Positions 19,340 through 23,555 of a stretch of DNA of 64,000 nucleotides are shown in pieces. The position numbers and the translations under genes are program-made. The stretch comes from Nitrosopumilus sp. (GTDB lineage Archaea; Thermoproteota; Nitrososphaeria; Nitrososphaerales; Nitrosopumilaceae), in the NCBI GenBank assembly GCA_965223425.1, contig OZ245003.1, positions 2,272,001 to 2,336,000 of the forward strand, read 5' to 3'. Every line of letters begins with the position of its first letter. Within the stretch, counting starts at the first letter, position 1. Below the pieces are notes generated by a model that ran no database searches, was not told the origin of the DNA, and was given only the letters and a program-made list of their open reading frames with translations.

Positions 19340-20536
19340 TTATCCCCTACTCAGCGTGGATACAATTTTGATCACATCGCCATCTTTTAATTTCTGCTCA
19401 CCGCTGATTCTTTGTTTGGTTTTACAGTCAATTGCGTGTAGGAACCCCCTGGCAATGTCTGCATGAATCAAACCCGCTAAATCTTTTGCAGTAGAGTTTT
19501 GGGGGAGTAGTTTGGAATCAGGTAGAATGACACCGTCCTTGTTGGTTAGTTTCGCTTCATCTTCTACAGGATATACAACAATAAATTTCAAAGAATCAAA
19601 AACAGCACTGTTTAAGATTTTTTGAATTCCAGTAGACGTGATTTTAGAAAATACTGATTTCACCAAATCCAGTGCTTTTTGTTGGGGGGGCAGAACTTCT
19701 TGTCCTTCAATTATTTTAAAACCCTCATCGCCTGGAGAATAGGCTACAATCCCAGCTTTTGATGCCTTGCGCAAAAGCAATTCTGTTTCTGCACTGCAAG
19801 GAATCACAGGATCAGAGATTTTTTTAAGAATGTCAAGATCTTGGCAGAGATCGGCTTTGTTTGCGGCAACAATCATTGGTTTGGTATTTTTTCTTAATTC
19901 TTTAACAAAGGTTCGGATATCAGAGTCTTCCCATTCTTTTGGATTTTTAGAAATAAGACCCAGCTTTTGCAACACCTCACGTACTTTGTAATCTTTGATC
20001 CCCAATCCTGTGAATCGTTTTGCAATGCCATCAGTAAGCTTGGCTCTTTTCTGATCGATTTCTCGGGTAATTTTATCCCATTCCCTTTTGAGAATGTCTG
20101 CAAACCATTGATCAAACTCGTCTTGAACAAACATTACATCTTCTAGAGGATCATGGGTTCCGGTTGGAACAGGCTGTCCTTGGATGTCAGTAGTTCCAGC
20201 AATATCTACCACATGAATCAGGACTTCAGCTTGTCGTGCATCATCAAGAAACTGGTTTCCCAATCCCTTTCCTTCGTGTGCGCCCGGAACCAGTCCTGCA
20301 ACATCAATTAGTTTAACTGGAATGAGACGGGTTCCATTAACGCATAGCGTGTTTTCATGTTGAATATCAAAATGTTTGCAGGCACAATCTGCCTTGACAT
20401 AGGCTACGCCAACATTGGGCTCAATCGTGGTGAAAGGAAAATTGCCTGATGCCACAGGGGTTTCTGTTGCAGCTGAAAAAAACGTAGACTTGCCAACATT
20501 TGCTTTTCCCAATAAACCAATTTGCACTATTGTCAA
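19340..20536 (-). CDS. ychF: YchF/Ola1-family GTPase with TGS domain
   Basis: GKANVGKST, FPFTTIEPN, DVAGLVPGAHEGKGLGNQFL, ANKAD, C-terminal LKDGDVIKI. Confidence 0.93.
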   Translation of the reverse strand: MTIVQIGLLGKANVGKSTFFSAATETPVASGNFPFTTIEPNVGVAYVKADCACKHFDIQHENTLCVNGTRLIPVKLIDVAGLVPGAHEGKGLGNQFLDDARQAEVLIHVVDIAGTTDIQGQPVPTGTHDPLEDVMFVQDEFDQWFADILKREWDKITREIDQKRAKLTDGIAKRFTGLGIKDYKVREVLQKLGLISKNPKEWEDSDIRTFVKELRKNTKPMIVAANKADLCQDLDILKKISDPVIPCSAETELLLRKASKAGIVAYSPGDEGFKIIEGQEVLPPQQKALDLVKSVFSKITSTGIQKILNSAVFDSLKFIVVYPVEDEAKLTNKDGVILPDSKLLPQNSTAKDLAGLIHADIARGFLHAIDCKTKQRISGEQKLKDGDVIKIVSTLSRG

Positions 20537-20744
20537 AAACCCAATTCTACTTATTAGTATTGCAGAAATCGGTTCTGTGAAGTTATCGGGGGTTATATGT
20601 CAATTCCCAAAATGTACAAGCCTCCAAACCGCAAGATATTCGCTGAAAGCGATAAAGTCAATATCACAGAAATATGCGCCGAACTCTGATCTAATGGATA
20701 TGGCGGCTACATTCACAAAGATGGTCAATCATTGCATCAAGATA

Positions 20745-21850
20745 TAGTCTAGAGCAAAAGTTCTTGAGATCAAATATGTTAGACAGAAATACATTTTGAT
20801 CACGCCGCACCACGCATTGCAATGCCCACAGTAAAATCCGAAGACCTGAAGAAAGCGTACAGGAGGGAGAAGAACCCTCGTGTCAAGATCAGAATGGCGG
20901 CCGTAAACATGGTGTGCATGAACAATGAAAGCATTCAACATGTGGCAGACTCGCTCATGCAGTGCCCCAACTGGGTGTCCTTCTGGGTGGAACGCTTCAA
21001 GGAGGAGAAGGGCGGCATAGACGCCCTCCGGGATCTTCCAAAGACAGGCAGGCCGCCAAAGGTTCGGTTGGACAAGATTGCAAGGGTTGTATCAGATGCA
21101 AACAGCAGCGGCATTATTACGCCAAAAAGACTCAAAAGCGACATACAAAAAAGATTCAAAGTAAAATACCACATAACCAGCATCAGAAAGATAATGCACA
21201 AGCTTGGAATGTCTGCCAAGACGGCTCAGCGCATCCACATCAGCAGGGCAGAAATTGACAAAATCAAAAGGTGGCAACACAATGCAAAAAGGCGGATTTC
21301 ACGCCTGGAATTGAAGGGTTTTACAACTGTCGTTTTTGACGAATCGATATTCATCGACGATCCTGCAAGTGGCGCAAAGTACTGGTCACCAAAAGGGGAG
21401 CCAATCACAACGACATACAAGGGACGGCACGGCAGGGTGGTGGCATACGGCTCCATTGCGACAGACGGCAGGCAGTTCTTTAGGACATATGACAGGTTTG
21501 ACAAGGAGACGGTTCTGCAATACATCAGGGAGATGACAAGTCATTTTGGCAAAGTGACAATCATCATGGACAACGCGCCGCAGCACAAGGCAAGGATTGT
21601 AAAAGAGTTTCTTGCAGGCAACCCCGATGTCAGGACAATATGGCTTCCGACTGCAACGCCTGAGCTCAGTGTAGTTGAGGAGTACTGGCATCAGGCAAAA
21701 CGGGACGTGTCGGTATCTGAATATTACGCTACGGTTGTGCACATGCGCCATGCAATGTCAGAATATTTCAGGACAGCCCGTCCCAAGCTTGATGCGATGA
21801 AGTTTATCTGTAGAAGGTCGCTCACTCTCAAAAACTTTTGATTGACACTA
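20745..21850 (+). mobile_element. IS630-family element, copy A1 (1106 bp)
   Basis: Imperfect TIRs TAGTCTAGAGCAAAAGTTCTTGAGA / TAGTGTCAATCAAAAGTTTTTGAGA. TA duplicated at 20743-20744 and 21851-21852. Near-identical to 52574-53679. Confidence 0.95.
20822..21841 (+). CDS. IS630 transposase
   Basis: HTH + GRPPK; DDE motifs FDESIF, MDNAPQH, PELSVVEEYW. Confidence 0.95.
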   Translation: MPTVKSEDLKKAYRREKNPRVKIRMAAVNMVCMNNESIQHVADSLMQCPNWVSFWVERFKEEKGGIDALRDLPKTGRPPKVRLDKIARVVSDANSSGIITPKRLKSDIQKRFKVKYHITSIRKIMHKLGMSAKTAQRIHISRAEIDKIKRWQHNAKRRISRLELKGFTTVVFDESIFIDDPASGAKYWSPKGEPITTTYKGRHGRVVAYGSIATDGRQFFRTYDRFDKETVLQYIREMTSHFGKVTIIMDNAPQHKARIVKEFLAGNPDVRTIWLPTATPELSVVEEYWHQAKRDVSVSEYYATVVHMRHAMSEYFRTARPKLDAMKFICRRSLTLKNF

Positions 21851-22789
21851 TAGGGTTGAAAGAAGACACTCACAATATGAAGAGGCTGTCCATGTTATGT
21901 TATCATGAATTACGTAACTATGACATTTTATCAACATACAAACTAAATGCAATATCAAGAGCTGCAGGCACATTATCAAACAGAAAACAATCAGTCAAAC
22001 GAGGTGTCAGAATAAGAGACCCAATAGTCAAAAATCCCTTTATGACAAACTGTTACGGCATAAAACACAACGGTGCACTACTAACAATCCCATACAAGAA
22101 ACATAACCCAATCAACATTTTACTCAACGATCACACCCAAAAAATCCTGTCTGATCCCGCCTTGACGGTGCGCTCGTTTTCACTGACTGCCCTCAACATC
22201 AGTCTTTGTGTTTCAAAAAAAGTACAAGAGATAGAGTGCACCAAGAAAGTTGGAATAGACAGAAACCTAAGAAATGTGACGTGTGGGAACGAGGAAGAGG
22301 TGACAGTCTACAAGACAAACAAGCTGCTATCCATAAAGGAGAACACAATACACGCCAGGGCAGGCTTCCACAGAAATGACCGCAGGAAGAAAAATCAGTT
22401 CTACAAGGAAAAACAGAGAAGACTGACTGACAGAGCAAAGCAGTACATCCACAGAATCTCAAAGGATATAGTAGACAACGCAGTCAAAAACAAGACTGCA
22501 ATCGTCATGGAAAACCTGAAAGGAATAAGAAAATTGTACCGAAAAGGAAATGGTCAGGGCAACAAGTACAGGCGCAGATTGAACGGGTGGCAATTCTACG
22601 AGCTGCAACGCCAAATAGAATACAAAGCCCGATGGGTCGGGCTCCCTCCAGTCGAGACAGTAGACCCAAGAAACACGAGCACGCAGTGTCCGCAATGCGG
22701 AAAGAGACTCCAAGAGGACATGCAACAGCATCGTAAACTGTCGTGTAATAATTGCGGTTTGTTTATGGACAGGGATATTGTCGCTGCCA

Positions 22790-22969
22790 TGAACAACATA
22801 TCACGCAAGCTGCCCCCTAGGTTTAGGGGCAGTAGAGATGACATATGTGAAGCGCAGTCCGGCACTTTTGAGCCGGCGATGACGGAATCCGGCACACCAT
22901 TGGTAATCCGAATAGTCGATATGTCAAAGTCGAGTTATAGGGGTTAACTCCCGATAACTTCACAGAACC
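22790..22969 (+). ncRNA. Predicted omegaRNA (reRNA) scaffold overlapping tnpB 3' end
   Basis: About 55 codons extend beyond the RuvC-III motif up to the element end, with GC hairpin CTGCCCCCT-AGGTTT-AGGGGCAG at 22810-22832. The position matches known TnpB omegaRNAs; this is inference. Confidence 0.5.
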
Positions 22970-23006
22970 CAGAAATCGTTTAATGCAGTATTCACGATTT
23001 TATAGC

Positions 23007-23555
23007 ATGTCAATAGTGATTACCGGAAGTCCGGGAGTTGGAAAGCATACCATAACACAGGAAATTGCTGAAAAACTCAGATTGCCCGTAATTGACATTA
23101 ATAGTGTGGCAAAAGATGCCGGATTATTTGAGAAAAATGGCGATACAAACGAGGTTGATACTTCAAAATTAGGAAAAATTCTTGAACAGGAAACTTTGGA
23201 GAAATGTGTGATTGTCGGGCATTTGGCACCTTATGTTTTAGACAAAAACAAAATAAAAATAATGATTGTTTTGAGACGAAGTCCTTATGACTTGATTCCC
23301 ATATATGAGAAGAGAGGATACACGGACAAAAAAATCACAGAGAATACCGGCAGCGAGATACTAGGCATAATTGCACATGATTCATCAAGTAAATTTCAAG
23401 AAAAAGTGTTTCAGGTAAACACCAGTGAAAAAAGTATTCCAGAAGCAGTGGAAAAGGTAATGACTGTAATCTCCACCCACAAGGGCGGCGAAGAGGTAGA
23501 CTGGCTTGACTTGGTTACAAAAAACAGTGACTTGAAAAAATTTTTTGCTGATTGA
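23007..23555 (+). CDS. Adenylate kinase 6/Fap7-like P-loop kinase
   Basis: ITGSPGVGKHT P-loop, IVGHLA, RGYTDKKITEN..EILG. Confidence 0.85.
   Translation: MSIVITGSPGVGKHTITQEIAEKLRLPVIDINSVAKDAGLFEKNGDTNEVDTSKLGKILEQETLEKCVIVGHLAPYVLDKNKIKIMIVLRRSPYDLIPIYEKRGYTDKKITENTGSEILGIIAHDSSSKFQEKVFQVNTSEKSIPEAVEKVMTVISTHKGGEEVDWLDLVTKNSDLKKFFAD

Follow-up and report, generated by a model that had tools for sequence, protein, structure and literature searches.

In the retrieved sections of PMC13565253, prokaryotic OMEGA modules are described as stably paired with the scarlessly excising IS605 and IS607 elements and as rarely associated with DDE transposons, and IS200/IS605 elements are said to possess neither terminal inverted repeats (TIRs) nor target-site duplications (TSDs). 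DDE-linked TnpBs are already published: the DDE partner named in the available portions of PMC10691335 is IS630, and those named in the sections of PMC13565253 are ISL2, IS630 and IS1031. The same portions of PMC10691335 also note solo TnpBs whose ends are nearly identical to those of transposase-bearing relatives, and contain IS6 only in a list of search profiles. For Fanzor, the 5′ TSD has been assigned to the TAM and the 3′ TSD to the scaffold (PMC13565253, same sections). A full-text literature search, with the supplementary locus tables of PMC10691335 outside its range, found no paper on TnpB in IS6-type elements.

Here we describe a tnpB locus in a window of 64,000 nt from the Nitrosopumilus sp. 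contig OZ245003.1, to which all coordinates below refer. An initial annotation, made from the letters of the window, had interpreted the locus as an RNA-guided nuclease captured by a TIR/DDE lineage and mobilized in trans, an interpretation that our analyses support. The element probably belongs, as a non-autonomous form, to a lineage of archaeal IS6-like (DDE_Tnp_IS240) transposons. It would carry nothing but an OMEGA module, made up of tnpB and of a predicted omegaRNA scaffold that overlaps tnpB at its 3′ end.

Results

The element spans positions 20571–22969 and measures 1291 bp once an IS630-family insertion has been removed. This 1106-bp insertion sequence (20745–21850, + strand; Pfam DDE_3, NCBIfam transpos_IS630) interrupts tnpB, has imperfect TIRs, is flanked by a TA target duplication (20743–20744 on the left, 21851–21852 on the right) and encodes a 339-aa transposase ORF (20822–21841, + strand; DDE_3 6.2e-22; 158.9 bits on NCBIfam transpos_IS630, cut-off 100). 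In silico removal of 20745–21852 leaves 1291 bp with a single open frame containing no stop in 422 codons, and tnpB is the sole gene of the element. As the IS630-family insertion splits the gene, the window copy is dead. An IS630-free joint (20741 to 21850, skipping 1108 bases) was present in DNA contigs and originates from other copies; contigs of four DNA runs over 20200–23400 contained no joint spanning the whole element, hence no polymorphic empty allele was seen. Re-derived from the window, the coordinates of the element, its TIRs, its TSD and the IS630 all hold as first annotated, including the length of 1291 bp that remains when IS630 and one TA are taken out.

The 24/25 TIRs and perfect 8-bp duplication reported by the initial annotation were recovered by an inverted-repeat search, in which the TIR pair was the longest inverted repeat found in 20400–23150. 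The left TIR (20571–20595, + strand) has the sequence GGTTCTGTGAAGTTATCGGGGGTTA and begins with the IS6-type GGTTCTGT; the right TIR (22945–22969, − strand) is, in reverse complement, one base off the left. With ≤3 mismatches allowed, a 20-nt pattern of the ends has 23+23 matches in the genome and its reversed control has 0+0, so the ends are not a product of chance. They are bounded by a perfect 8-bp TSD, CAGAAATC, at 20563–20570 (unstranded) and 22970–22977. Whether relatives carry one or two copies of this octamer at the empty site had been raised as a check, and in nine of nine congeneric genomes inspected there is one, in the context ...gtatt[a/g]CAGAAATC followed directly by GTTTAATGCAG.

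The interrupted gene consists of a 5′ fragment of 56 codons from a GTG (20577–20744, + strand) and a 3′ fragment of 364 codons plus stop (21853–22947, + strand; Pfam Cas12f1-like_TNB, PF07282, 3.3e-20). Within the latter lie the RuvC residues D (GIDRN), E (ENLKG) and D (DRD) and a CxxC...CxxC zinc finger, which had been annotated as intact and proved so both in the window fragment and in alignment with relatives: D192, E276, D364, C335, C338 and C354 are invariant in an alignment of seven sequences at 31–65% identity, and one further copy (E1984) carries a Cys-to-Arg change at the first zinc ligand. The stop codon, as annotated, lies inside the right TIR, its TAA (22945–22947) forming the innermost 3 nt. 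The annotated length of about 398 aa holds with the start used by relatives (TTG or ATG at the position equivalent to 20643) but not in this subfamily, which has CTG there and an open frame that extends upstream as far as the GTG at 20577, giving 420 aa. An intact sister copy (L055:1501-2760) scores 119.9 bits on NCBIfam NF040570 guided_TnpB (cut-off 100), and matches to PDB sequences were to Cas12f and TnpB, including ISDra2 TnpB at E = 3.6e-5. On the curated profile together with the triad and zinc finger, the product belongs to TnpB, a predicted RNA-guided endonuclease (OMEGA). The gene is under purifying selection, with open frames in nine of nine copies tested and a mean dN/dS of 0.36.

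Fourteen full-length relatives of the element were found in this genome, 11 at ≥94.6% identity and 3 at 83–86%. Perfect 8-bp TSDs, all different, flank seven of them, one has a duplication matching at 7/8 and four have no match, while the remaining two have reciprocally swapped flanks, indicating an inversion by homologous recombination between two copies. In genome contigs of relatives we located 77 tnpB loci, with TIR and TSD detection anchored on the GGTTCTGT core; 46 have a TIR pair of ≥15/25, 25 of these with perfect 8-bp TSDs, and in the other 31 the script found no TIR pair. The same kind of ends accompanies TnpBs down to approximately 30% identity in Nitrososphaerota, and no IS605-type anatomy was seen among the other tnpB copies inspected, in agreement with what the initial annotation implied for further copies, namely that they keep the TIRs and duplications of their own. 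The association it proposed is supported, and "captured" understates it: by this comparison, TnpB has had such ends for long and widely across Nitrososphaerota.

Elements with tnpB as their only gene are usually filed under IS200/IS605 (IS1341 type), and the NCBIfam profiles IS200_TnpB and IS607_TnpB are matched below threshold, so an ordinary member of that family with coincidental TIRs and TSD has to be considered. We give this reading next to no credence. TIRs together with differing 8-bp TSDs were found at 7 sites of this genome and at 25 in others, and the empty site proves a true duplication; membership of the IS1341 group is refuted on these grounds.

Regarding the mobilizing enzyme, the annotated resemblance of the ends to IS6-family DDE elements was supported by IS6-like transposases (Pfam DDE_Tnp_IS240) lying in elements with GGTTCTGT ends and 8-bp TSDs, some of them with TIRs near-identical to those of tnpB elements. 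The search for an autonomous transposase with the same ends yielded candidates in other genomes, where full-length transposase genes lie within TIRs 23/25 identical to those of the tnpB elements (L184), and where the TIRs of one transposase element (L137) are 24/25 identical to those of the tnpB elements L071 and L072. It failed in this genome, where the transposase genes beside similar ends, located 40–55 bp inside TIRs whose first 14–16 nt are common with the tnpB TIR, are decayed, and no intact transposase with the exact tnpB-element TIRs was found. These decayed genes are among eight PF13610 matches in the genome; another is in a 2983-bp element (G000:C1:915423-918405) that encodes an intact 358-aa transposase, is flanked by the TSD CAATAGAG and carries a methyltransferase-HNH passenger gene. 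Sibling transposases score above the Pfam DDE_Tnp_IS240 gathering score and reach 111.1 bits on NCBIfam transpos_IS6, under its equivalog cut-off of 125, and they possess extra N-terminal zinc-binding regions. No tnpB was found in 6 transposase loci inspected or in 25 TSD-flanked transposase elements. Since no intact transposase has the exact TIRs here and the copies differ by 2.5–5%, the tnpB element family looks inactive in this genome.

A conserved RNA structure (22809–22926, + strand) overlaps the 3′ end of tnpB and adjoins the right TIR. It contains three helices, 22809–15/22827–33, 22839–45/22920–26 and 22859–63/22872–76, in which 96.4% of helix cells are paired versus 34–43% in slid controls and 16 of 19 pairs show compensatory changes; G–U pairs fix the strand as the sense strand. 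The three covarying helices are consistent with an omegaRNA scaffold, and an Rfam scan of 20500–23100 yielded only a chance-level lncRNA match. By geometry, the predicted guide would consist of the right TSD and adjacent flank (22970–22989, + strand), its length being assumed from other TnpBs. Separately, a 9-mer, ATATGTCAA, is common to the left subterminal region and helix 2, which we judge to be at chance level for a 1.3-kb element.

The initial annotation had also placed a TAM just 5′ of the TSD (..TATTG), and a conserved motif with the orientation of tnpB was indeed found there. We took the 3 nt directly 5′ of the left TSD in 34 tnpB elements with matched TSDs, oriented by tnpB, approximately two thirds of which come from two genomes, so that the insertions are independent and the elements kin. 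WTR, mostly TTG, occupies this position in 31/34 elements and the mirrored position on the right in 1/34, relative to a flank background of 10.8% (binomial p = 5e-27), with T at −2 in 33/34 and G at −1 in 20/34. In the window the candidate TAM is TTG (20560–20562, + strand), and the empty sites of relatives read TTA or TTG at this position. In the anchored re-detection, WTR occupied the left position in 24/25 elements and the right one in 1/25. Of the 19 loci that have TIRs and lack a matching TSD, only 11 carried WTR. The motif fits a TAM, and its occurrence beside nearly every copy suggests that the nuclease helps the element to persist.

The same anatomy would be expected if WTR reflected an insertion preference of the IS6-like transposase or the make-up of the sites within its reach (AT-rich promoter regions), with TnpB a passive or differently acting cargo. 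The flanks are T-rich, and tnpB-less IS6-transposase elements have WTR in 10/25 on the left (background 12.7%, p = 6e-4) and in 4/25 on the right, and T stands at −3 in 16/25 on one side and 18/25 on the other. Part of the WTR signal is thus a preference of the transposase or for AT-rich targets. As a full account we nonetheless regard this as unlikely. Despite TIRs that are identical across 25 bp, the motif favours one side, the side set by the orientation of tnpB; WTR is far stronger on the left of the tnpB elements than of the transposase-bearing ones (Fisher p = 3.5e-5); only the tnpB elements are characterized by G at −1 (WTG in 3/25 controls); and a promoter would not be expected at a fixed 0 nt from the TSD. 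In a distant tnpB clade (approximately 32% identity), whose TIRs start almost alike, three of four elements have TAT at this position and one has ATA.

The near-universal T at −2 and the fixed distance between motif and TSD could alternatively mean that TnpB acts in integration, for instance that TAM-bound TnpB positions the transposase, the motif then recording target choice and not later survival; a pure survival filter would need to be very strong to yield it. Against this, before insertion there is no guide that could match a new site, and the element has neither a fusion nor a conserved partner gene. Outside Cas12k transposons we know of no precedent for a TnpB-family role in target choice, and we consider this reading highly improbable.

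Discussion

We favour the interpretation of the element as an IS6-like transposon shell with an OMEGA module as cargo. An IS6-like transposase supplied in trans would move the tnpB element, and transcription through the right TIR would generate a guide composed of the right TSD and flank. With WTR as the TAM, the unfilled allele (WTR–TSD–flank) would be cut, and the filled allele would be spared because ACC, not WTR, precedes its right TSD. Insertions next to a TAM would be the copies that home or are restored, and so persist. In the IS6/IS26 family, movement proceeds through cointegrates and involves no excision, so that restorative homing in the IS605 style has no obvious trigger here. The only event of this kind observed among the copies is the inversion by homologous recombination.

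A further, tentative proposal, to which we give somewhat less than even weight, is that the TnpB–omegaRNA module is an obligatory partner of the IS6-like DDE transposon, an insertion persisting, or even forming, only directly 3′ of a TAM plus 8 bp. If this were true, the survival of individual copies would hinge on RNA-guided homing or restoration in a TIR/TSD transposon as well, not in IS605 and IS607 elements alone, and one and the same transposon shell would bear a motif that varies with its TnpB clade. The case reveals a widespread, multi-copy TnpB lineage in IS6-type shells across ammonia-oxidizing archaea and offers a comparative readout of a probable TAM with a defined predicted guide geometry, the TSD supplying the first 8 guide nucleotides. 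It thereby makes testable what use an RNA-guided nuclease has to a target-duplicating transposon of a family described as moving without excision, and the compact archaeal TnpBs of approximately 400 aa, with their short predicted TAM, are candidates for characterization.

Among known systems, the IS6/IS26 family and its transposase-less derivatives (MITEs and cargo-bearing forms) resemble the element in TIRs of approximately 25 bp starting with GG, the 8-bp TSD, the Pfam DDE_Tnp_IS240 match of the transposases in sibling elements and the occurrence of passenger genes. The element differs in that it lacks a transposase, has as its only gene a tnpB with an omegaRNA-like scaffold, and shows a one-sided motif at its insertion sites. 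With the IS1341 group of IS200/IS605, for which ISDra2 TnpB is the model, it shares a single tnpB and a short motif 5′ of the left end, at the position of the TAM in that group; its putative RNA scaffold over the 3′ end of the gene, abutting the right end, would be a further likeness. It has TIRs and an 8-bp TSD in place of subterminal hairpins without duplication; its candidate TAM is set apart from the element by the TSD, with which the guide would begin.

The DDE-associated branches DDE-1 to DDE-6 (Altae-Tran et al. 2023, PMC10691335) likewise have a prokaryotic TnpB housed in a transposon that ends in inverted terminal repeats; the association rule given in the available portions of that paper is a DDE gene within 1000 bp, under which the solo elements described here would fail. 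Fanzor1, found in eukaryotic DDE transposons (Tc1/mariner, hAT and others), is a TnpB-family nuclease in a TIR/TSD transposon with a guide RNA at the element end. The TSD here differs in being 8 bp of arbitrary sequence, which forces the TAM outside the TSD and would make the TSD itself part of the guide.

Structure of the tnpB element and its insertion site

The tnpB-only element at 20571–22969 is bounded by 25-nt terminal inverted repeats (TIRs; left 20571–20595, right 22945–22969, matching at 24/25 positions), which are flanked by two copies of the 8-bp target-site duplication (TSD) CAGAAATC at 20563–20570 and 22970–22977. Inside it lies an IS630-family insertion sequence (20745–21850) with imperfect TIRs and a TA duplication, encoding a 339-aa transposase that scores 158.9 bits against NCBIfam transpos_IS630 (cut-off 100). 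Cutting out 20745–21852 yields 1291 bp with a single open frame that extends from the left TIR as far as a TAA stop within the right TIR, in agreement with the TIRs, 8-bp TSD, IS630 insertion and 1291-bp element of the initial annotation. Because the insertion splits the gene after codon 56, the window copy of tnpB is a pseudogene. The RuvC D, E, D and zinc-finger cysteines, described initially as intact, are indeed found in this copy and are invariant in an alignment of seven relatives (31–65% identity). Its 3′ fragment matches Pfam Cas12f1-like_TNB, and an intact sister copy scores 119.9 bits against NCBIfam guided_TnpB, above the cut-off of 100, and matches Cas12f and TnpB chains in the PDB at the sequence level.

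The same ychF–kinase intergenic sequence is unfilled in all nine congeneric genomes inspected and contains one CAGAAATC rather than two, with GTATTA or GTATTG before it and GTTTAATGCAG after it; the duplication at the window element is real. In the absence of the insertion, which lies 5 nt upstream of the kinase start codon ATG, a spacer of only ~39 bp (20537–20570 plus 22978–22982) separates the divergent GTPase and kinase genes. This spacer is nearly invariant over the nine congeneric genomes, so the element interrupts a strongly conserved region that is probably regulatory.

Copies in the genome and among relatives

A 20-nt end pattern occurred 23 + 23 times in the 2.64-Mb genome at ≤3 mismatches, versus 0 + 0 for a reversed control. 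Using BLAST, we recovered 11 full-length copies that are 94.6–100% identical to E1984, the reference copy; other insertion sequences interrupt two of the 11. Three copies at 83–86% and three right-end fragments were also recovered. The ends first described in the window recur among these: seven of the 14 full-length elements keep the TIRs and carry perfect 8-bp TSDs, each different, one has a 7/8 match, two have reciprocally swapped flanks and four are without a matching TSD. All nine copies tested (uninterrupted or rejoined) retain 422 open codons, with pairwise means of 0.059 for dS, 0.021 for dN and 0.36 for dN/dS. The minimum of dS (0.021) falls in the final third of tnpB, which fits an additional nucleotide-level constraint there.

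Several copies bear traces of rearrangement. The inverted copies E1325 (contig G000:C1 of the source genome, 1325308–1326598) and E1451 (1451399–1452689) show a reciprocal exchange of their 8-bp flanks (TAGAAACT and TTATGTTA), indicating a ~125-kb chromosomal inversion via homologous recombination between the two. Two other copies (G000:C1:654737–656024 and 783913–785206) share a left flank, differ in their right flanks and have a left terminus altered alike, with ACGTCTGT in place of GGTTCTGT, which suggests that a damaged left end was duplicated or recombined. IS630-family elements were repeatedly found within other mobile elements (20745–21850 in the window; G000:C1:594888–596147, 1201631–1202743 and 2471155–2472267); one host is a second copy of tnpB and another a 6.85-kb element of IS6 type. 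Those beyond the window are a 371-aa variant, compared with 339 aa in the window. The second contig, C2 (123,097 bp), has 46.9% G+C versus 41.2% on the main contig and could represent a plasmid or DNA of foreign origin.

Ends of this kind also bound tnpB relatives (30–63% identity) from other genera of the order, several of them with 8-bp TSDs. Scanning species-representative genomes, we recovered 77 tnpB loci from assemblies of Nitrosopumilus, Nitrosotenuis, Nitrosotalea and Nitrososphaera; a single Nitrosopumilus assembly has more than 35 copies. When the search for ends was anchored on the GGTTCTGT core, a TIR pair matching at ≥15/25 positions was present in 46 of the 77 (perfect TSD in 25, 7/8 TSD in 2), and no pair was detected in 31, mostly more distant relatives or contig-truncated loci. 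Judged from these sequences, the association of tnpB with IS6-type ends is old and broad.

Transposases with matching ends

Pfam DDE_Tnp_IS240 has eight matches in the genome. An intact 358-aa transposase of this family occupies a 2983-bp element (G000:C1:915423–918405) with GGTTCTGT TIRs and the TSD CAATAGAG, whose passenger gene encodes a 475-aa DNA methyltransferase with a fused HNH nuclease motif. Two transposase genes, both decayed, stop 40–55 bp inside TIRs whose first 16 nt (at 793017) and 14 nt (at 2470372) are identical to the tnpB TIR. Full-length transposase genes with nearly the ends sought by the initial annotation occur in other genomes: one (L184) is followed by a TIR 23/25 identical to that of the window, and another (L137) has a TIR 24/25 identical to that of the tnpB elements L071 and L072. 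Among 80 transposase loci from other genomes, 25 elements had a GGTTCTGT TIR pair and a perfect 8-bp TSD, and none of these 25 contained tnpB. We term the transposases IS6-like because their NCBIfam transpos_IS6 score, 111.1 bits, is under the equivalog cut-off of 125, and we infer that such an enzyme mobilises the tnpB element in trans. Since the matching transposases here are decayed and the tnpB copies diverge by 2.5–5%, the family looks quiescent in this genome. A 6853-bp element (G000:C1:1201385–1208237) with GGTTCTGT TIRs and the TSD CATTATTC is packed with nested insertion sequences; it contains two IS630-like elements, an IS6-like transposase fragment, a methyltransferase-like open reading frame (ORF) and an ORF that by eye resembles an IS110-type transposase.

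A predicted omegaRNA and a tnpB-oriented motif

When 17 diverse elements were aligned over their final 260 nt, three helices emerged on the sense strand (22809–22815/22827–22833, 22839–22845/22920–22926 and 22859–22863/22872–22876). Pairing is present in 96.4% of cells, versus 34–43% with the 3′ partners slid by 1–3 columns, both-sided changes affect 16 of the 19 pairs, and none of 500 shuffles reached the observed covariation score. Frequent G–U pairs fix the strand, and helix 1 keeps its pairing though the encoded protein sequence varies. No Rfam family matches the region; covariation supports a predicted, omegaRNA-like structure.

A TAM had been predicted just 5′ of the TSD, and a tnpB-oriented motif, WTR, is found there at −3 to −1. 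We pooled 34 tnpB elements with matched TSDs, each oriented by tnpB: this genome contributed 10 (among them the two recombinant pairs after reconstruction and a single 7/8 TSD case), relatives three and the collection scan 21. WTR precedes the left TSD in 31/34 and occupies the mirrored right position in 1/34 (left versus own right side, Fisher P = 1.6e-14), with T at −2 in 33 and R at −1 in 32 (G 20, A 12); F2433 (CTA), G040 (TTT) and G021c (TAT) depart from it. In the surrounding flanks this trinucleotide class has a frequency of 10.8% (binomial P = 5e-27, for elements that are kin and about two thirds of which come from two genomes). In the 25 anchored elements with perfect TSDs, the counts are 24 left and 1 right.

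The motif could alternatively be pure transposase preference. In 25 IS6-transposase elements, WTR occurred at 10 left and 4 mirrored right sites (background 12.7%; tnpB versus control left sides, Fisher P = 3.5e-5). These controls have T at −3 in 16/25 and 18/25 on the two sides, and WTG is limited to 3/25. The transposase itself thus appears to favour T/A-rich sequence symmetrically, and the one-sided T–R, G above all, goes with tnpB. A 344-bp derivative keeping just the right-hand 299 bp also carries TTG on the expected side, and a tnpB clade at ~32% identity with an almost identical TIR start has TAT in three elements and ATA in one at these positions, few as the elements are. The motif result is weakened by 19 loci with TIRs but without a TSD match, only 11 of which have WTR.

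The unfilled allele reads WTR–TSD–flank, and an RNA transcribed outward through the right TIR would have TSD–flank as its guide. Because ACC precedes the right TSD and the TIR follows the left TSD, neither copy in the filled allele would be a target. TnpB would cut alleles that are unfilled or have been precisely emptied, a filled copy would then restore the element by recombination, and copies next to a TAM would outlast others. TnpB might instead directly help to choose the target. IS6/IS26 elements typically move by cointegrates, without excision, a mode of transposition that offers the cut-and-restore model no obvious source of target alleles.

Comparison with known TnpB systems

Full-text literature searches turned up no account of TnpB within elements of IS6 type. 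Prokaryotic OMEGA–DDE pairings are called rare in the relevant passages of PMC13565253, which name ISL2, IS630 and IS1031. Altae-Tran et al. 2023 (PMC10691335) describe, in the sections on these systems, six branches of TnpB that are associated with DDE transposases and have inverted terminal repeats, as well as solo TnpBs whose ends match; the DDE family named there is IS630, and IS6 appears only among the search profiles. To this the present analysis adds an empty site, a covariation-supported RNA and a tnpB-oriented motif. IS200/IS605 and IS607 have neither TIRs nor TSDs according to the same passages of PMC13565253, whereas the window element has 25-nt TIRs and an 8-bp TSD; compared with IS605-type TnpB elements, the geometry is equal except for the inserted TSD.
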